Below, piece by piece: positions 31,914-39,348 of a stretch of 64,000 nucleotides of DNA; the stretch's first letter is position 1, and each line of letters opens with the position of its first letter. Source of the stretch: Bacillota bacterium (GTDB taxonomy: Bacteria > Bacillota_I > Bacilli_A > RFN20 > CAG-826); NCBI GenBank assembly GCA_023393065.1, contig JAEWMX010000015.1, positions 16,221 through 80,220 of the forward strand, written 5' to 3'. A program made the position numbers and the translations under genes. A model generated the notes under the pieces. It saw only the letters and a list, made by a program, of their open reading frames with translations. It was not told the DNA's origin and did not search any database.

Positions 31914-32363
31914 ATGCGCATCGTCTTACAAAACGTCTTAGAAAGCCACCTTTCGATTGCTAATCGCCTCTTTTGTTCAATCAATAAAGGCTATGTCCTG
32001 CTCGTCGGTTTTACGGAGGGCGATGACGAGGAGCTCGCTAGCAAGATGGCTGAACGCCTAATCAAGATGCGCGTCTTTCAAGACGAGCTCGGTAAGACCA
32101 ATCTTTCGATCGTCGACATCGAAGGTTCGATCTTAGCGGTCCCTCAATTCACTTTATACGCCGATTTAAGCGGTGGTCGGCGGCCTTCTTTTACGAAGGC
32201 TCTCGCCCCGCAAGAAGCGAGTCGTCTCTTCGATTTTTTTGTCAATTCTTTAAAAGATCTATATCCGGATGTCTGCCAAGGTGTTTTCGGGGCCGACATG
32301 CAAGTCAATTTGACTAATGACGGACCTTTTACTCTGATTCTCGACTCAAAGGATTTGTTTTAG
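31914..32363 (+). CDS. dtd: D-aminoacyl-tRNA deacylase
   Basis: 149 aa. MRIVLQNV..., SQFTLYADL.GRRPSF and NDGPFT(L) motifs. Confidence 0.92.
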   Translation: MRIVLQNVLESHLSIANRLFCSINKGYVLLVGFTEGDDEELASKMAERLIKMRVFQDELGKTNLSIVDIEGSILAVPQFTLYADLSGGRRPSFTKALAPQEASRLFDFFVNSLKDLYPDVCQGVFGADMQVNLTNDGPFTLILDSKDLF

Positions 32364-33503
32364 ATGGCAAAAACGCGGGTTATGCTCGGTCTTTCCGGCG
32401 GTGTCGACTCGGCGGTGGCAGCTTATTTGCTCAAAGAGCAAGGCTACGAAGTCATCGCTTGTTTTATGCGCAACTGGGATGCGATGGCCAACAACGATTT
32501 TCTCGGCAATCCGACCGCAGGCGACGCGCAGTGCCCGCAAGAGAAGGATTACGATGATGCCCTCAGCGTCGCTAAAGCGCTTGATATTCCTCTCCTTCGC
32601 ATCGACTTTGTCAAAGAGTATTGGAACGATGTCTTTACCTACTTTTTAAAAGAATACGAAGCCGGGCGGACTCCCAATCCCGATGTCTTCTGCAACAAAT
32701 TCATTAAATTTTCGGCTTTCTATCAGTTTGCCGTGCAAAATGATTGCTCGCTCATCGCCATGGGCCACTACGCCAAACGCGTGGAGATAGACGGACATTT
32801 CTATCTCGCCAAAGCCAAGGATCTAAATAAAGATCAGACCTACTTTCTTTCACAGCTTAGCGAAGACCAGATCAAAGCCTGCCTTTTCCCTTTGGGCGCA
32901 TTGACCAAAGAAGAAGTGAGAGATATCGCCAAGAAGTTAAATTTAGGAGTCGCCACCAAAAAGGATTCGACCGGCATCTGCTTTATCGGCGAACGCCATT
33001 TTAAAGAGTTCTTACATAACTATCTTCCCGCCCAGCAAGGCGATATCGTTGATATATCAACGGGGCAAAAATTTGGTACGCATTCCGGAGCGATGTACTA
33101 CACGATCGGCCAACATCGCGGACTCGGTATCGGCGGTATCGCCCACCAGGAAGCCGAAGGTTGGTTCGTCGTCCGAAAAGACGTCTCAAAAAACATCGTC
33201 TACGTCGCGAGCGGAAGTGAAAACGCGGCTCTTTTTTCCGATTATTGCCTCGTCACTAACCTCAATGTGTATGAGGGCTATGATTTAGATAAGAAACATT
33301 TGAAGGCGAAATTCCGCTATCGTTCCGTTGATGTTGATGTCGATCTCGAAAAAATTGACAAAGATACATTAAAAGTAACATATAGAAATAAACAAAAAGC
33401 CATCGCGACAGGCCAAGCGGCTGTCTTCTACGATGGCTCTTTAATGGTCGGCGGCGGTTTGATAAGCGAAGTCTATCGCGACAACAAACGCATCGATAAA
33501 TAA
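32364..33503 (+). CDS. mnmA: tRNA 2-thiouridine(34) synthase MnmA
   Basis: PP-loop LSGGVDSAV, catalytic Cys regions (NPDVFCNKFIKF; DSTGICFIGE). Confidence 0.95.
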   Translation: MAKTRVMLGLSGGVDSAVAAYLLKEQGYEVIACFMRNWDAMANNDFLGNPTAGDAQCPQEKDYDDALSVAKALDIPLLRIDFVKEYWNDVFTYFLKEYEAGRTPNPDVFCNKFIKFSAFYQFAVQNDCSLIAMGHYAKRVEIDGHFYLAKAKDLNKDQTYFLSQLSEDQIKACLFPLGALTKEEVRDIAKKLNLGVATKKDSTGICFIGERHFKEFLHNYLPAQQGDIVDISTGQKFGTHSGAMYYTIGQHRGLGIGGIAHQEAEGWFVVRKDVSKNIVYVASGSENAALFSDYCLVTNLNVYEGYDLDKKHLKAKFRYRSVDVDVDLEKIDKDTLKVTYRNKQKAIATGQAAVFYDGSLMVGGGLISEVYRDNKRIDK

Positions 33504-33504
33504 A

Positions 33505-34305
33505 TTATTTATTTAAAATCATGGTATCCGGCAGGACATCGCCAGTTTTTTCGCTGAATTTCTTGATTAGTTCTTCGACGGTCAACTGCTCTTTTTCCTT
33601 ATCGCGGCAATCGAAGATAATCTTGCCATCCGCCATCATGATCAAGCGGTTGCCATAGCGGATCGCATCGCGCATGTTGTGCGTGACCATGATAGTCGTC
33701 AGATGAGCTTTTCTAACGATATCATCAGTGATGCGCATGACGATTTTGGCTGTTTCCGGATCGAGGGCGGCGGTGTGCTCGTCGAGGAGGAGGAGGCGCG
33801 GATGATTCATCGTCGCCATCGTTAAAGTGATTGATTGACGCTGGCCGCCGGAAAGATTTTTCATCCGTTCGGACAGTCGCGTTTCGAGACCTAGACCTAG
33901 GGGGGCCAAGAGTTCTTCAAAATGCTTTTTCTGCTTTTTTTGTAGGCCCCACGCTAGACCGGTTGGCTGACCGCGGTGGTTGGCTAAAAACATATTTTCT
34001 TCAACCATCATATCGCCGATTGTGCCAATCATCGGGTCTTGAAAAACGCGACCGATAAAGCGCGAGCGAACATGGTTTTTCAAAGTGACGATATTTTGTC
34101 CATCGAGGATAATTTGTCCTTCGTCTGGTTCATAGGAACCAGCAATGAGATTTAATAATGTCGATTTACCCGAACCGTTCGAACCGATAATCGTGATGAA
34201 ATCACCATCCTCGATTCTCAGATTTAAATGGTCGATGGCGTGCTTCTTATTGCTTTCCTGCCCGTCGAGGATGAAGGTCTTGTCAAGGTTGATGATGTCA
34301 AGCAT
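33505..34305 (-). CDS. ABC importer ATP-binding protein (putative Trp/Tyr transport system family)
   Basis: Walker A GSNGSGKST, signature LSGGQRQ, Walker B LLLLDEHTAALD. Last gene of the SBP-permease-ATPase operon. Confidence 0.9.
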   Translation of the reverse strand: MLDIINLDKTFILDGQESNKKHAIDHLNLRIEDGDFITIIGSNGSGKSTLLNLIAGSYEPDEGQIILDGQNIVTLKNHVRSRFIGRVFQDPMIGTIGDMMVEENMFLANHRGQPTGLAWGLQKKQKKHFEELLAPLGLGLETRLSERMKNLSGGQRQSITLTMATMNHPRLLLLDEHTAALDPETAKIVMRITDDIVRKAHLTTIMVTHNMRDAIRYGNRLIMMADGKIIFDCRDKEKEQLTVEELIKKFSEKTGDVLPDTMILNK

Positions 34306-35254
34306 TGGCCTTCCTCCGCGCTTTAATTTTCTTTTTCATATTCGCATAGTTCTTTTTAAATAGAGGTATGCACAAAATGAGGATGAATAGAATGGCCTGA
34401 ATGAGCTTTAAATAGCCATTGTCGTTTAACAGGCGCATCGCTAGATTAATGACTAGTTGATAGGCGAATGAGCCGACGAAGACACCGAGTAAAGAAACGG
34501 CGAAGTTCGTTTTTTTAAAGAGCATGATGGCTTCGCCGAGAAGAATACTCGCCAAAGCTATGACGATTGTCCCTTGCCCAAATGTTGAATTCGAGGTGAG
34601 CATGAATTGCGAGAAGAGTGAGCCGCTCATGGCCACGATGGAGTTGCTGATCACAAGACCGAGAATGACGCGGCTATCAGTGTTGATGCCTTGCGCGCGA
34701 CTCATAATCTTATTTTTACCGGTGGCCCTGATCGTAATGCCCAGCTTGGTTCCAAAAAACCAATAGAGGACGGCGATGACGACTCCGATGACGATGATGC
34801 TGGCGACGATATAGCCCCATTCGCCAATGAGACTGCGAAAGAAGGAGAAGATCGTCGTCATGTTCAAGACGGTCACCGAACCGACAAAATCACCGGGGCG
34901 GCTATAGCTTTGCAATGAATTCGTAATGCCGTTAAGCAGTTGGGCAAGCGGCACGCACATCACCATCGTGATAATCCCGGCCAGAAGCGAAGGAATCTTG
35001 AGTTTGGTGTGTAATACACCAGTTAATAAACCCATGACTCCTCCGACTAAAAAGGCGATAAAGACGGCGATGACCGGCGGGACTTTTAAGACGATCATCA
35101 AAACGGTGATCGCTCCGCCGAGGGGAAAGACGCCTTCGGCACCCAAATCGGCGATATCTAAAACGCGATAGGCGATGTAGACACCGATGCCTAATAAGGC
35201 ATAGATGAGACCTAAATTCAGCGAGTTAGTTAAGATGTTGTAAAAGATAATCAT
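34298..35254 (-). CDS. ABC importer permease (same system)
   Basis: 318 aa, about 8-9 TM helices. 8-nt overlap with the ATPase gene and 9 nt after the SBP gene. Confidence 0.85.
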   Translation of the reverse strand: MIIFYNILTNSLNLGLIYALLGIGVYIAYRVLDIADLGAEGVFPLGGAITVLMIVLKVPPVIAVFIAFLVGGVMGLLTGVLHTKLKIPSLLAGIITMVMCVPLAQLLNGITNSLQSYSRPGDFVGSVTVLNMTTIFSFFRSLIGEWGYIVASIIVIGVVIAVLYWFFGTKLGITIRATGKNKIMSRAQGINTDSRVILGLVISNSIVAMSGSLFSQFMLTSNSTFGQGTIVIALASILLGEAIMLFKKTNFAVSLLGVFVGSFAYQLVINLAMRLLNDNGYLKLIQAILFILILCIPLFKKNYANMKKKIKARRKANA

Positions 35255-35262
35255 TTTTCCTA

Positions 35263-36231
35263 TTAATTATCGATGATTTCGTCAGCTTCCTCAAGTAGTT
35301 CTGTCGGGAAAGTTAGACCGATTCCTTCAGCGTTATCGACGTGGAGGATAAGCGGCATATCTTCGACGCGGCGAACCGGCAATTCAGCGATGCTTTTTCC
35401 GCCGAGAAACTCAACGGCCATTTCACCGGTGATGCGGCCAAGATCGAAGTAATTGATGCTAAGGGTTGCGACGGCTCCTAATTCGAGGCAAGCTTCTTCG
35501 CCAGCGATAATCGGAATGTCAGCGGCATCGGCCTTTTCTTTGACCGTCGAGTAGGCACTCACTAAAGTGGAGTCGGTCGGAGTGTATAGTCCTTCGATGC
35601 CAGCTTCGATGAGCGTGTCCATCGCCGCGGCGACTTGGTTCGTCTCGGTAAAAGTTTCAAAGACGAAATCGAGACCGAATTCGGTAGCGGCCGCAGCTGC
35701 AAGATCTTTCTGAACGACGGAGTTGGTTTCGGTCGAGCAGTAGATCATGCCAATTTTTTCAATGCCGAGACCTAATTTCGTGAATAGTTCGACTTGTTCG
35801 CGGACCGGATTCATGTCGCTGGTGCCGGTAATGTTGTTATCCGGGGCGTCATCATCGCTCATCAAACCCGAGAAGACGGGATCGGTGACGGCGGTGAAAA
35901 AGATCGGCACATCATTTCCTTTGATAGCACGAGCGGATAAAAGGCCGCTGGCGGCCGGAGTGGCGATACCTAAGACGAGATCGCTTTCACCGATGAGAGT
36001 GAGTGAAGAAGAGGCGACGAGGCTGCCATCCGCATTGGCATCCTTGACATTCAACTTATAGTTGATTCCGGCATCGTCGAGAGCTTTGACAAACCCTGAT
36101 TGAGCGTCATTGAGGGGGGCGATGTTGACGAATTTGAGAATTCCGATTTGCACGACATCGCTTTTACAAGCGGTGACGGCGATCATCGAAGTGGCCGCGA
36201 GGGCGGCGAGTAGTAGGCGTTTGACTTTCAT
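35263..36231 (-). CDS. ABC importer substrate-binding lipoprotein (ABC_sub_bind/PF04392-like)
   Basis: Lipobox AVTAC. Family-typical blocks IGILKFVNIAPLNDAQSGFVKAL, DLVLGIATPAA, PIFFTAVTDPV, NITGTSD, IGMIYCSTETNS, GLYTPTDSTLVSA, ATLSINYFDLGRITGEMA. RBS AAAGGAG. Confidence 0.88.
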   Translation of the reverse strand: MKVKRLLLAALAATSMIAVTACKSDVVQIGILKFVNIAPLNDAQSGFVKALDDAGINYKLNVKDANADGSLVASSSLTLIGESDLVLGIATPAASGLLSARAIKGNDVPIFFTAVTDPVFSGLMSDDDAPDNNITGTSDMNPVREQVELFTKLGLGIEKIGMIYCSTETNSVVQKDLAAAAATEFGLDFVFETFTETNQVAAAMDTLIEAGIEGLYTPTDSTLVSAYSTVKEKADAADIPIIAGEEACLELGAVATLSINYFDLGRITGEMAVEFLGGKSIAELPVRRVEDMPLILHVDNAEGIGLTFPTELLEEADEIIDN

Positions 36232-36247
36232 TTTGTTCTCCTTTATG

Positions 36248-36278
36248 AAATAAAACTCAGGTGGTGGTCACCTGAGTT
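36248..36278 (-). terminator. intrinsic terminator inside the 5' leader of the ABC importer operon
   Basis: Minus strand: AACUCAGGUG (36278-36269) / CACCUGAGUU (36263-36254), 10 bp, loop ACCAC, followed by UUAUUU. Ends just upstream of the SBP RBS (36244-36238). Confidence 0.7.
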
Positions 36279-36368
36279 CATGAAGGTAATGACTTTGCCA
36301 GGTGTCCGCGATCGCTCGTCTTCCACCTGCTATTATCACTGATAATACTTAACGGGATTGGAAAACGA
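36254..36368 (-). promoter_or_regulatory. alternative-helix attenuator switch (P1/P2/P3/P4)
   Basis: P1: 36368-36359 with 36325-36316 (10 bp). P2: 36329-36324 with 36304-36299. P3: 36304-36298 with 36275-36269. P4 is the terminator. Adjacent helices share nucleotides and are mutually exclusive. CAGGUG and CACCUG each occur twice in alternating order. Confidence 0.55.
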
Positions 36369-36441
36369 TTCCTAAGTAATAATAGTAATAATAGGAAAAA
36401 TAGGACTTCTGGAGCGTTAAATTGTGATTTGCGGTTTTCAT
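36349..36441 (-). CDS. candidate Tyr-rich leader peptide (30 aa: MKTANHNLTLQKSYFSYYYYYYLGIVFQSR)
   Basis: Minus-strand ATG 36441-36439 to TAA 36351-36349. Six consecutive Tyr codons TAT TAT TAC TAT TAT TAC (36393-36376). Lies between a TATAAT box and the leader terminator. SD weak and distant (GGGA, 15 nt upstream). Confidence 0.55.
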   Translation of the reverse strand: MKTANHNLTLQKSYFSYYYYYYLGIVFQSR

Positions 36442-36474
36442 AATTGTGACAACAGGTCCCTTTTTATGAATTGA

Positions 36475-36503
36475 ATTATATCGGGATTCCCTTATTAAGA
36501 AAA
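36475..36503 (-). promoter_or_regulatory. candidate promoter of the ABC importer leader
   Basis: Minus strand: TATAAT (36480-36475) with a weak -35 TTTTCT (36503-36498), 17-nt spacer. Confidence 0.35.
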
Positions 36504-36535
36504 GAGAAAACGCAAATATTTTTCGTCTAAATCAT

Positions 36536-36563
36536 TTGAAGTGTTGCTTAAATATGGTATATT
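36536..36563 (+). promoter_or_regulatory. candidate sigma-A promoter of the alaS T-box leader
   Basis: TTGAAG (36536-36541), 16-nt spacer, extended -10 TGgTATATT (36555-36563). Confidence 0.6.
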
Positions 36564-36569
36564 TACTAC

Positions 36570-36721
36570 ATTCAATAGAGGAACTAAGCTTAGCAGCGTG
36601 CCACTCCTCTGAAGCGGCTAATCCCCGCCGTCGGCTGCGTTAAAGCCCAATTGAGTGCATTATCAGTAATGAATAAGGATGGTACCGCGAGTTAATCGTT
36701 CCTTAGGGACGATTTTTATTT
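36570..36721 (+). promoter_or_regulatory. T-box leader (Ala) upstream of alaS
   Basis: T-box sequence AAGGAUGGUACCGCGAG (36675-36692; one mismatch to GGGUGGUACCGCG). Terminator AAUCGUUCC-UUA-GGGACGAUU plus UUUAUUU (36694-36721). Adjacent Ala codons GCG GCU after GAA at 36614-36619 are the candidate specifier. Confidence 0.85.
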
Positions 36722-36738
36722 GGCAAGAGGAACAGACC

Positions 36739-39348
36739 ATGAAAACAATGACCGGCAATGAAATTCGCAAGACTTGGATAAGTTTTTTTGAAGCGCGCGG
36801 GCACAAGCTCGAAAAAGGCGCTTCGCTCATTCCTTACAAGGATCCGACACTCTTGTGGATCAACTCTGGTGTCGCGGGACTTAAAAAGTATTTTGACGGG
36901 TCGGAGATGCCCCCTTCACGACGCATCGTCAACGTCCAAAAGTCAATTCGGACAAACGACATCGAAAATGTCGGATATACTGCTCGCCATCACACTTTCT
37001 TTGAGATGCTCGGCAATTTTTCAATCGGCGATTACTTTCGTCAAGAAATGCTGCCATGGGCATTTGAAATCCTGACTTCCGAGAAGTATTTCGCCATGCC
37101 TAAAGACAAATTGTATTTTACGTATTTACCGACTGATTTGGAGACGCGGGACCTGTGGCTGAAGTGCGGGGTTAGCGCCGATCACTTAATTCCTCTCGAA
37201 GACAATTTCTGGCAGATCGGCGAAGGTCCGTGCGGACCTAACACCGAAGTCTTCTTTGATCGCGGAGAAAAATACGATGTCAAGAAACAAGGTGTCAGCT
37301 TATTGGCTAATAACCTCGAAAACGATCGCTACATCGAAATTTGGGGCATCGTCTTTTCACAGTATAATGCCGTTGATGGCGTCAAGCGCGAAGACTATAA
37401 GGAGCTCCCTAGTAAAAATATTGATACAGGCGCGGGCCTTGAGCGCATCGCGTGCGTCCTGCAAGAGACGCCGACCAACTTTGAAACCGACTTATTCTAT
37501 CCCCTGATTCAAGAGACCGCAAAAATTGCGAGTGAACCATATCAGGACAAGAATCTGACAGCTTACCGCGTCATCGCCGATCACATTCGCACGGTCGTCT
37601 TTGCCCTCTCCGACGGCGAACCCTTCTCCAACGAAGGGCGAGGCTATGTCTTACGCCGCGTCTTGAGGCGGGCGATGCGCTTCGGCCGTAAGATCGGAAT
37701 CGACAAACCTTTCTTATTTACTTTGGTGCCAACTGTCATCGAGATCATGAAAGATTTCTATCCCGACCTCGTCAAGCGCCAAGACTATGTCGAAAGGAGC
37801 ATCAGAGCCGAAGAAGAGAAATTCTTAAAGACCCTCAAGGGTGGCGAAGCTATGCTTCGTGATATGCTGGTCAGCAAGTCGCTACTCAGTGGACAAGAAG
37901 CCTTTCGCCTCTATGATACTTTTGGCTTTCCGGTCGAATTGACTGTCGAAATCGCTCAGGAAAGCGGAGTTAAAGTCGACCTCAAAGGTTTCGAATTTGA
38001 AATGAACAAACAAAAAGAGAGAGCCCGCCAAGCCCGCAGCGATGCCGGAAGCATGGGCCAGCAGCACCAAGACTTGCTTAAATTCGTCGCAAAAAGCGAT
38101 TTTAGTTATGAAGAGGGCGATCTCGATGCTAAGGTTATCGGCCTTTTTGCAGATGGCGAGGCGGTTGAGGAGCTAAATGGCGAAGGCGAAGTCGTTTTCG
38201 ACATCACAAATTTCTATGCCGAAAGCGGTGGTCAAATCGGCGATCAAGGCACTATTTATAATAATGATTGCGAAGCTCGCGTCCTCAACACGCGCAAAGC
38301 TCCAAATAAACAGCATCTGCACGAAATCAATATCAGTTACGGAACGATGCGCCTCGGTGATGAATTCAGATTGCAAATCGATCATCAACGCCGTCACTTG
38401 ACGATGCGCAATCACTCAGCGACCCACCTCTTGCACAGCGTCTTGGTCAATGTGCTTGGCAGTCATATAACCCAGCAGGGATCATATGTTTCTGACGAGT
38501 ATCTCCGATTTGATTTTTCTCATTATGCCAAAATTAGCGATGAACAGATTCTGACGATCGAAAAACAAGTTAATGAACTAATTGCCGCTTCACTCAACGC
38601 GAGAGTTCGCGTCTTGCCGATCAAAGAAGCGGAAAAGACCGGCGCCAAAGCCTTTTTCAGTGAAAAATACGGCGATGAGGTACGCGTAGTCGCCTTTGGT
38701 GATATATCGCAGGAATTCTGCGGTGGAACTCATGTTCACAATAGCGAGGAGATTGGTCTCTTCGTCATCGAATCCGAAGAGTCAATCGCCGCTGGCGTGC
38801 GACGCATTCAAGCTCGTACTTCAATCGGAGCCTACCACCTTTTAAAGCGTCGCGAAAACATATTGCATAAGGCACAAGTCCTTGTTGGAGCCGGTTCGAT
38901 TTACGAAGTCGACGACCGTCTCAAAGCGATTCTTAATCACGAACAAGATTTAAGGCGAGAAAATGAAAAACTAACAGAAAAAATCGTCAGCATCACCTCC
39001 GAATCCCTCCGTCACTCAGCGTCGGTTTTTGGAGGCTATCACATCATCTTCAAACACTTACCCGGATTAGCGCGCGACGTTCTCACCAAAGTCGGCGACA
39101 ACCTCAAAGTCCATTACCAGGATTATGTCATCGTCTTAGCGGGAGGCGGTCAAGATAACATCGCTCTCGTCGCTTTTGTCGGCGGCCAAGCTTTGAAAGA
39201 TGGCATCAAAGCCGGAGACATCATCAAAGAAGTGAGCAAACAAGTCGGCGGCTCGGGTGGTGGACGTCCGGAGATGGCGCAGGGACAAGGCAGGAATTTA
39301 AGCGCTTTGCATGGAGCTTTTGATTATATCAAAGAAAGTCTCAAATGA
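36739..39348 (+). CDS. alaS: alanine--tRNA ligase
   Basis: 869 aa from ATG 36739 (RBS AGAGG). Class II motifs, editing-domain HSATHLL and CGGTH, C-terminal DHHA1 GGSGGGRPEMAQG. The track start at 36679 would read through the T-box terminator. Confidence 0.97.
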   Translation: MKTMTGNEIRKTWISFFEARGHKLEKGASLIPYKDPTLLWINSGVAGLKKYFDGSEMPPSRRIVNVQKSIRTNDIENVGYTARHHTFFEMLGNFSIGDYFRQEMLPWAFEILTSEKYFAMPKDKLYFTYLPTDLETRDLWLKCGVSADHLIPLEDNFWQIGEGPCGPNTEVFFDRGEKYDVKKQGVSLLANNLENDRYIEIWGIVFSQYNAVDGVKREDYKELPSKNIDTGAGLERIACVLQETPTNFETDLFYPLIQETAKIASEPYQDKNLTAYRVIADHIRTVVFALSDGEPFSNEGRGYVLRRVLRRAMRFGRKIGIDKPFLFTLVPTVIEIMKDFYPDLVKRQDYVERSIRAEEEKFLKTLKGGEAMLRDMLVSKSLLSGQEAFRLYDTFGFPVELTVEIAQESGVKVDLKGFEFEMNKQKERARQARSDAGSMGQQHQDLLKFVAKSDFSYEEGDLDAKVIGLFADGEAVEELNGEGEVVFDITNFYAESGGQIGDQGTIYNNDCEARVLNTRKAPNKQHLHEINISYGTMRLGDEFRLQIDHQRRHLTMRNHSATHLLHSVLVNVLGSHITQQGSYVSDEYLRFDFSHYAKISDEQILTIEKQVNELIAASLNARVRVLPIKEAEKTGAKAFFSEKYGDEVRVVAFGDISQEFCGGTHVHNSEEIGLFVIESEESIAAGVRRIQARTSIGAYHLLKRRENILHKAQVLVGAGSIYEVDDRLKAILNHEQDLRRENEKLTEKIVSITSESLRHSASVFGGYHIIFKHLPGLARDVLTKVGDNLKVHYQDYVIVLAGGGQDNIALVAFVGGQALKDGIKAGDIIKEVSKQVGGSGGGRPEMAQGQGRNLSALHGAFDYIKESLK

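Follow-up and report, generated by a model that had tools for sequence, protein, structure and literature searches.

Attenuation of transcription by leader peptides has been described or predicted for Trp, His, Phe, Leu, Thr, Ile/Val and Cys, and in the classical attenuators the decision is kinetic. In the hisL attenuator of Salmonella and E. coli, the leader carries seven His codons and its RNA is divided into segments A to F, of which A:B, C:D and E:F pair when the ribosome does not stall or when there is no translation, and B:C and D:E pair when it stalls. Here we describe a leader RNA on the minus strand of a 64,000-nt stretch from a Bacillota bacterium (assembly GCA_023393065.1, contig JAEWMX010000015.1, positions 16,221 to 80,220; this whole stretch is referred to as the window), which precedes the genes of an ATP-binding cassette (ABC) transporter and contains a short open reading frame (ORF) with six consecutive Tyr codons. 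The element is most likely a transcription attenuator of the ribosome-mediated, leader-peptide type, which would sense charged tRNA-Tyr and regulate an ABC importer of tyrosine. Its architecture is closest to that of the his attenuator, with which it shares a short ORF containing a run of one codon, six segments with the same pairing logic and termination before the first structural gene; it differs in that the codons are for Tyr and not His, the target is an importer and not a biosynthetic operon, the host belongs to the Bacilli and not the Enterobacteria, there is no sequence similarity, and an extra 5' helix (P0) is present. A preliminary description of the locus had noted a TATAAT box, the ORF with its Tyr run, four helices (P1 to P4) and a ribosome binding site (RBS), and all of these features are present on the minus strand where it had placed them.

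Among the leader-peptide attenuators linked to aromatic amino acids, the pheL and pheM leaders of pheA and pheST in E. coli and the aroR leader of Corynebacterium glutamicum resemble the window element in kind, but they respond to Phe, control biosynthesis or tRNA-synthetase genes and have no Tyr run. AroR of C. glutamicum, the nearest case, contains Phe-Tyr-Phe and is reported to respond to Phe but not to tyrosine availability (Neshat et al. 2014, as summarised in PMC11802643). The uORFC-13-1 motif upstream of aroF in Acholeplasma consists of a predicted upstream ORF (uORF) with Phe codons and an intrinsic terminator (Brewer et al. 2021, PMC8632094); it is similar in combining a uORF with a terminator in a Bacilli-related lineage (wall-less/reduced), in its aromatic link and in being known from comparative evidence only, and it is different in that its Phe codons (a U-run) precede a DAHP synthase gene and in that the window locus has no Rfam match. 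Within the bacilli, a His leader peptide precedes the hisS paralog and hisZ (Naville & Gautheret 2010, PMC2965389) and a Leu-rich attenuator peptide precedes ilv-leu of S. aureus (PMC5794164), and these leaders likewise represent classical leader-peptide attenuation able to replace T-boxes, although their amino acids (His, Leu) and their targets are different. The trpXYZ system of S. suis belongs to the same transporter family and is controlled by a T-box (PMC9382623); there too uptake is induced when the cognate tRNA is uncharged, but the sensor is a tRNA-binding T-box RNA, whereas here it is proposed to be a ribosome translating a run of Tyr codons. Full-text literature searches found no described Tyr-run or tyrosine-specific leader peptide, in line with the novelty claimed in the preliminary description. 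What would be new at this locus is thus tyrosine, the importer target and the setting in Bacilli, and the mechanism itself would be classical leader-peptide attenuation. The elements of the leader are as follows.

36397..36465, minus strand: helix P0 (minimum free energy [MFE] fold)
36349..36441, minus strand: leader ORF of 30 codons plus TAA (ATG 36441, TAA 36351-36349), encoding MKTANHNLTLQKSYFSYYYYYYLGIVFQSR, 30 amino acids with 7 Tyr and 2 Phe
36376..36393, minus strand: Tyr codons TAT TAT TAC TAT TAT TAC, the proposed sensor (sequence)
36330..36394, minus strand: hairpin A:B, with outer helix A formed by CUAUUAUUACU (36394-36384) and AGUGAUAAUAG (36340-36330) (MFE and RNAalifold)
36331..36347, minus strand: local hairpin, UAUUAUC (36347-36341), loop AGU, GAUAAUA (36337-36331) (constrained folds)
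36316..36368, minus strand: P1 (B:C), UCGUUUUCCA (36368-36359, codons 25-28) with UGGAAGACGA (36325-36316) (pairing and covariation)
36299..36329, minus strand: P2 (C:D, anti-antiterminator), CAGGUG (36329-36324) with CACCUG (36304-36299), a small inner hairpin
36269..36304, minus strand: P3 (D:E, antiterminator), CACCUGG (36304-36298) with UCAGGUG (36275-36269) (pairing)
36246..36279, minus strand: P4 (E:F, predicted terminator), 11-bp stem 36279-36269/36263-36253 with a 5-nt loop (terminator scan)

Runs of at least five Tyr codons occur in the window only in the leader ORF and were obtained in 0 of 100 dinucleotide shuffles. The window belongs to a clade of uncultured Bacilli whose binding proteins are 66-91% identical to that of the window, the next relatives being at most 41% identical, and a binding-protein scan of genome contigs returned only three close relatives, all metagenome-assembled genomes (MAGs). 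We retrieved 26 orthologous loci (designated below by L numbers), 24 of which had enough upstream DNA and gave 17 distinct leaders (alignment A1) and 13 distinct peptides. All 24 have the leader ORF, with frame and position unchanged, and the alignment of orthologs, a check proposed in the preliminary description, shows conservation of the ORF, the Tyr run, the position of the stop codon and the four helices. The core of the peptide, F-S-YYYYYY, is unchanged across orthologs with one exception, YYYYCY in L146. This variant stems from a TAT to TGT change at the fifth Tyr codon (positions 196-213 of L146, a single Logan contig) and could be either natural or an assembly error. Leaving L146 aside, Tyr codons 1-5 never vary, third position included, and both TAC and TAT are found as the sixth. 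Outside the core, the peptide drifts freely, with 13-14 N-terminal and 6-10 C-terminal residues being variable (examples are MKTANHNLTLQKS, MKSIKNKSTFAKC, MLSLQKNIHNIKQN and MNLKQKNMINKLES). Despite this drift, no stop interrupts the frame in the 17 distinct leaders, whereas the two alternative frames contain 49 and 17 stops; the spacing from the ATG to the Tyr run is 48 nt in 15 sequences and 51 nt in 2, and variable sites are spread over the three codon positions as 9/9/12. An open frame, a fixed ATG distance and even variation are what would be seen if the ORF has to be translated and there is no selection on the sequence of its product. L002 and the window differ at four sites of the ORF, synonymously in each case, whereas the sequence immediately ahead of the start codon is scrambled between them. 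L018-L020 have lost 1 nt downstream of the Tyr run; the deletion gives the peptide the C-terminus LGSFSVCAKS and shifts the stop codon by 6 nt in the downstream direction, yet the P1 pairing is kept, which shows that the RNA, and not the peptide, is the constrained part there.

The leader RNA (36470-36232) folds at -61 kcal/mol, compared with -42.2 +/- 4.3 kcal/mol in 200 shuffles (z = -4.4). P1 to P4 pair in the window sequence exactly as had been described, with energies of -10.4 (P1), -8.5 (P2), -7.3 (P3) and -16.5 kcal/mol (P4), and all of P2-P4 is built from two copies of CAGGUG and two of CACCUG that are nearly invariant across leaders. The strongest comparative signal comes from P1, whose 5' strand lies exactly in the last codons before the stop codon in nearly all lineages and in which three of ten pairs show compensatory double changes (UA to GC, UA to CG and CG to UA, or the reverse), the CG/UA exchange being seen in five sequences. 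When P1 and P3 were scored jointly, 0 of 500 column shuffles reached the observed covariation score, and 96% of cells were paired versus 31-48% when the 3' partner was slid (pairing percentages are alignment cells paired across the 17 distinct leaders). P3 alone is paired in 99% of cells and has one-sided changes only (G-U to A-U and U-A to U-G, or the reverse). In the most diverged leaders, L005 and L006, P1 is rebuilt as GCGUUUAUUUGA(A):(U)UCAGGUAAACGC, and its 3' strand contains the whole 5' strand of P2; in these two leaders P1 and P2 are therefore strictly exclusive. Among the remaining helices, UCAGGUG takes part in both P3 and P4 and CACCUG in both P2 and P3. The claim that neighbouring helices share nucleotides thus stands for P2/P3 and P3/P4, and it needs qualifying for P1/P2, which overlap by only 2 nt in the window and completely in L005/L006. 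P4 was recovered independently by a terminator scan as an 11-bp stem (36279-36253) followed by TATTTCAT; its stem is GC-rich, its 3' strand terminates in UUU and is followed by UAUUUCAU, and in all orthologs the stem is conserved and the loop variable, features that mark it as a predicted intrinsic terminator.

The four-helix layout proposed earlier proved sound but incomplete, because two further conserved helices, A and P0, had been missed. RNAalifold on A1 independently returned helix A together with P2 and P4, i.e., the termination conformer. The 5' strand of helix A (-7.3 kcal/mol in the window), CUAUUAUUACU, is Tyr codons 1-3, and the helix is paired in 94% of cells in the 17 leaders, with one-sided, pairing-preserving changes only. 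Inside it, ACUUAG (36377-36372) pairs with UUAAGU (36352-36347), a strand containing the stop codon; GGAA pairs with UUCC. In the MFE fold, the 5' strand of P1 lies within the resulting A:B hairpin and takes part in some of its pairs, so folding predicts that this strand is sequestered when the Tyr codons carry no ribosome. The 3' strand of helix A has an alternative partner in the local hairpin at 36331..36347, which forms within the P1 loop in the read-through state. With helix A added, the layout can be read as a six-segment chain of A:B, B:C (P1), C:D (P2), D:E (P3) and E:F (P4). Helix P0 encloses the start codon and the N-terminal codons of the leader ORF: its 5' side, in the 5' end of the transcript (CAUAAAAGG...), consists of AAAA (36465-36462) and GGGACCUG (36460-36453), and its 3' side of CAG (36411-36409), GUCCU (36406-36402) and UUUU (36400-36397) in the codons just before the Tyr run. 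An equivalent of P0 is found in the MFE fold of most of the 17 leaders, and five, the window and its close relatives L002, L003, L141 and L142, keep only a short form. The sequence of P0 is different in L005 (AAAAUAAUUUUG:CAAAAUUAUUUU) and L006, with covariation between these two leaders and the main clade; cognate duplexes have -9.1 kcal/mol and non-cognate ones -1.0 to -4.0 kcal/mol in this comparison. P0 might stabilise the 5' end, gate translation of the leader or keep UUUUUCC off the 3' strand of P1. RNAalifold also paired UUUUCCU, just before the Tyr run, with the Shine-Dalgarno (SD) sequence AGGAGAA that serves the binding protein, and did so in each of the 17 leaders (minus strand, A1 columns 79-85 with 246-252, in the window about 36399-36393 with 36243-36237); this long-range pairing was set aside, being probably an artefact of two conserved, complementary low-complexity strings, although an anti-SD role is conceivable.

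We propose that the first 230 nt of the transcript act as a chain of six segments, in which A would correspond to the Tyr codons, B to the end of the ORF with the region of its stop codon, C to CAGGUGGAAGACGA, D to CACCUGG, E to UCAGGUG and F to CACCUGAGUU together with the U-tract. When tyrosine is plentiful, the ribosome would reach the UAA and cover B, so that C pairs with D (P2) as D is made; E, left free, would then pair with F (P4), and RNA polymerase would halt before the transporter genes. When charged tRNA-Tyr is scarce, the ribosome would stall on the first Tyr codons, melting A:B and leaving B uncovered. B would then pair with C (P1), and the freed D would capture E (P3) before F is transcribed, allowing polymerase to read into the genes for the binding protein, permease and ATPase and more importer to be made. 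If the leader were not translated, A:B, C:D and E:F would form together and transcription would terminate. The geometry of the ORF suits this scheme, since the 5' strand of P1 stays accessible when a ribosome is stalled at any of Tyr codons 1-4 and is covered when the ribosome is at the UAA. We infer from these arrangements that the ORF is translated, that ribosomes stall at its Tyr codons and that termination responds to tyrosine.

The scheme was examined in all 17 leaders by staged folds, in which ribosome-covered nucleotides were masked and transcripts of increasing length were folded; these are equilibrium calculations for a kinetic process. At the point where CACCUG has just emerged, P2 is in the MFE fold of 17 of 17 leaders, whether the ribosome is placed at the stop codon or left out, and with a ribosome stalled at Tyr codon 2, P1 already replaces P2 in 9 of 17. 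Just before the 3' strand of the terminator, the stalled state has P1+P3 as its MFE fold in 16 of 17 leaders, and the stop-codon state still retains P2 in 10 of 17. Constrained folding of both states, as the preliminary description had suggested, thus gave the expected fold in most leaders but did not separate the states cleanly in every ortholog. Taken with the conservation of the leader and the covariation in P1, these modelled folds are broadly consistent with the proposal that the position of the ribosome would choose between P1+P3 (read-through) and P2+P4 (termination).

The regulated transporter provides an independent line of evidence. The binding protein of the window matches the structures 3LFT, 6HNI and 3LKV in PDB, which bind Trp, Tyr (C. 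difficile CD0873) and Phe, respectively (Bradshaw et al., PMC6816091). In CD0873, Glu263 hydrogen-bonds the phenol hydroxyl of Tyr and is replaced by Ala in the Phe and Trp binders, and Tyr279 excludes tryptophan and is replaced by Gln in the Trp binder (PMC6816091). In a HMMER alignment to 6HNI, 3LFT and 3LKV, Glu245 and Tyr261 of the window protein align with Glu263 and Tyr279 of CD0873, and the Glu/Tyr pocket is common to 25 of 25 clade members that cover these positions. The window protein thus shares both the transporter family and the Glu/Tyr signature with CD0873 (PMC6816091), and its pocket residues predict that the operon imports tyrosine. The earlier assignment to a Trp/Tyr-importer family, made by analogy with T-box specifiers, can accordingly be narrowed to a probable Tyr type. 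Because the pocket residues point to tyrosine import, a sensor made of Tyr codons is physiologically sensible.

A second leader ORF with a Tyr run was found at 2300-2353 of L147, where it encodes MLFKFYAYYYYYFSNGN (ATG TTA TTT AAG TTT TAC GCT TAT TAT TAT TAC TAC TTT AGC AAC GGC AAC TGA); L147-L149 are identical in this region. This leader is unrelated in sequence to that of the window, and it precedes a binding protein that is 39% identical to the window's and is also of the Glu/Tyr type. It has an AGGAGG SD 7 nt upstream of the ORF and a long hairpin followed by a T-run ahead of the RBS of the binding-protein gene, and the region has no Rfam match. In its MFE fold the Tyr codons pair with a strand, AAUAAUAAG, just after the stop codon; the leaders of the two lineages, which have no sequence similarity, thus both pair their Tyr codons with an AUAAUA-type strand located after the stop codon. 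The gene upstream of the L147 leader is AlaX-like (tRNA_SAD domain). The MLFKFYAYYYYYFSNGN leader, which amounts effectively to one sequence, suggests that the attenuator interpretation is right and that it extends to a wider class. The chances are about even that leaders with Tyr runs make up a recurrent, unannotated class of attenuators in front of Tyr-type PF04392 importers, having emerged or been kept in several unrelated bacterial lineages, and replacing the Tyr/Trp T-boxes present elsewhere.

Such a class would not be universal in the PF04392 transporter family. No Tyr leader was found at the cultured homologs in a plasmid collection, and the Subdoligranulum homolog in that collection is T-box-controlled (79 bits). 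A scan of IMG/VR returned four distant homologs; upstream DNA could be read for two of them, and in both the leader is short and lacks a Tyr ORF. The DNA pattern TTYNNN(TAY)6 matched at least 120 stretches in metagenomes, which were TAT/TAC microsatellites mostly from eukaryote-rich samples, and there was no plausible leader among the matches listed. A KYYYYM sequence upstream of a Paenibacillus homolog was rejected as a chance occurrence, having no SD and no terminator and preceding a binding protein without the Glu signature. In Enterococcus gallinarum (L151 357-545, plus strand), the DNA upstream of a PF04392 binding-protein gene matches Rfam RF02863 (Enterococcus sRNA 2410; 89.5 bits), and this small RNA (sRNA) may really be a cis-acting leader of the transporter family.

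Several observations weigh against the attenuator interpretation as set out above. The entire evidence base is computational, and all relatives are MAGs or metagenomic contigs of uncultured organisms. The window and several of its close relatives have no SD at normal spacing, only AAAGGGA 15-19 nt upstream of the ATG. The weak, distant SD described earlier therefore holds for the subclade of the window but not as a general trait, since the diverged L004, L005, L006 and L009 have a well-spaced SD (GAGGAG, GAGG, GAGGA or AGGAAG) 6-8 nt upstream of the ATG. Invariance of the third positions of the Tyr codons could be explained by the pairing in helix A as much as by coding, and the shifted stop codon of L018-L020 worsens the proposed geometry. 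P2, P3 and P4 show one-sided changes that preserve pairing and no double compensation, which is expected because each strand must fit two partners but is still weaker evidence than that for P1. Since P1 and P2 overlap by so little in the clade of the window, a pseudoknot holding both is conceivable there. In the staged folds, L009 is the sole leader without P1+P3 in the stalled state, and with the ribosome at the stop codon P3 is thermodynamically preferred just before the 3' strand of the terminator in 7 of 17 leaders. Finally, in the full-length transcript the terminator (-16.5 kcal/mol) is in the MFE fold in nearly every ribosome state. Because the terminator wins at equilibrium in nearly every state, the model requires that the choice between P2 and P3 be kinetic, with P3 blocking the terminator only if CACCUG is free as UCAGGUG emerges.

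Some of these observations would also be accounted for by a translation-independent RNA switch, in which the UAUUAUUAC repeat is a structural strand (helix A) or a protein or ligand site and the ORF is a by-product of AU-rich sequence. The invariance of Tyr codons 1-5 including their third positions, the restriction of the sixth to TAC or TAT, the pairing of the Tyr codons with a conserved downstream strand and the lack of a well-placed SD in the window would all be expected of such a switch, and the N-terminal part of the ORF would be open by chance with a probability of 0.16-0.49 per sequence. We nevertheless consider this explanation unlikely, for it does not account for the constant in-frame spacing of the ATG throughout the 17 leaders, the 0 stops versus 49 and 17 in the other frames, the proper SD in the four most diverged lineages or the exact placement, in almost every lineage, of the 5' strand of P1 within the final codons of the ORF; in addition, the unrelated L147 leader also codes for a Tyr run behind a strong AGGAGG, and no Rfam family matches. 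If the ORF is translated, it might instead make termination depend on the general state of translation, for example on ribosome availability or global starvation, and not on tyrosine, given that P1+P3 would be favoured alike by whatever slows the leading ribosome ahead of segment B. That the six-Tyr run is the only invariant part of the peptide, that the regulated transporter has a Tyr-type pocket and that a second lineage independently couples a Tyr run with the same type of transporter make this quite improbable.

The predominance of the terminator at equilibrium would equally suit a P4 that acts as an insulator, constitutive or leaky, separating the divergent promoters of alaS and the ABC operon, with the alternative pairings and the ORF having no regulatory role. 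A constitutive terminator directly upstream of the only visible RBS of the operon would, however, silence it; conservation is much higher over the entire 230-nt leader than in the spacers separating its helices, and the compensatory changes in P1 and the conservation of the duplicated CAGGUG/CACCUG need a reason, so that we regard an insulator as very improbable. A diverged T-box or another known riboswitch would be a natural candidate in view of the T-box control of homologous transporters (S. suis trpXYZ, PMC9382623, and the Subdoligranulum homolog at 79 bits), but its probability is close to nil. The minus strand of the leader has no match to a T-box or any other Rfam family, either at gathering score or at E <= 10, the same search detected the neighbouring alaS T-box, and the leader contains neither the T-box sequence nor features of Stem I. 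A T-box (RF00230) or riboswitch identity was therefore rejected, there being no covariance-model match on the minus strand compared with 43.1 bits for the alaS T-box, and the check proposed in the preliminary description, a search of the region against Rfam, left it without an explanation among known riboswitches. A leader-peptide attenuator responding to tyrosine remains the preferred reading.

Inspection of the 64-kb window places the leader on the minus strand between the divergent alaS gene and the ABC operon. The promoter and the regulated genes are as follows.

36480-36475, minus strand: -10 box TATAAT (sequence)
36244-36238, minus strand: RBS AAAGGAG of the binding-protein gene, 6 nt ahead of the ATG at 36231
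33505..36244, minus strand: regulated operon including the RBS (Pfam scan)
36231-35263, minus strand: substrate-binding lipoprotein, PF04392 (Pfam scan)
35254-34298, minus strand: permease, PF02653 (Pfam scan)
34305-33505, minus strand: ABC ATPase, PF00005 (Pfam scan)

In the seven orthologous upstream regions inspected (the window, L002-L006 and L009), TATAAT is followed in every case after 7-8 nt by CATAAAA, and transcription presumably starts about 7 nt downstream of TATAAT, near 36468-36472, directly before the conserved CAUAAAA. There is no convincing -35 hexamer upstream of the TATAAT at 36480-36475, and a promoter scan lists no promoter there because a good -35 hexamer is absent. The gene order alaS, leader, binding protein, permease, ATPase, mnmA and dtd is found in all sufficiently long orthologous loci. 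The genes dtd (D-Tyr-tRNA deacylase) and mnmA, at 31914-33503 on the plus strand, converge on the 3' end of the ABC operon, and this arrangement is kept in every orthologous locus long enough to reveal it; the adjacency of dtd to a tyrosine importer may be coincidental.

On the other side, a T-box leader with a shortened Stem I lies upstream of alaS (36535-36706, plus strand), divergent from the Tyr leader. In an Rfam search it scores 43.1 bits (E = 2e-8) and is the sole Rfam match in the whole window at E <= 1e-3; it is missed at the default threshold because this score is below the Rfam gathering score of 93. The starts of the two leaders are about 60 nt apart, and the divergent alaS gene is 100 nt from the Tyr leader. 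The mechanically called alaS ORF (36679-39348, plus strand) begins inside the terminator of the T-box (stem 36694-36714), and its Pfam domain first covers residue 28, so the true start of alaS is probably some tens of nucleotides downstream of 36679.

A leader of this kind would fill the tyrosine gap in Bacilli, where T-boxes usually serve, and would do so directly beside a T-box-controlled alaS. It would also lend regulatory support, in agreement with the pocket residues, to tyrosine import by an otherwise uncharacterised ABC system. For uncultured organisms, a short ORF with at least four Tyr codons upstream of a Glu/Tyr-type PF04392 gene offers a handle for further searches. Finally, the element would be a compact tyrosine-responsive part for synthetic biology and a clean system for the study of ribosome stalling on Tyr codons.

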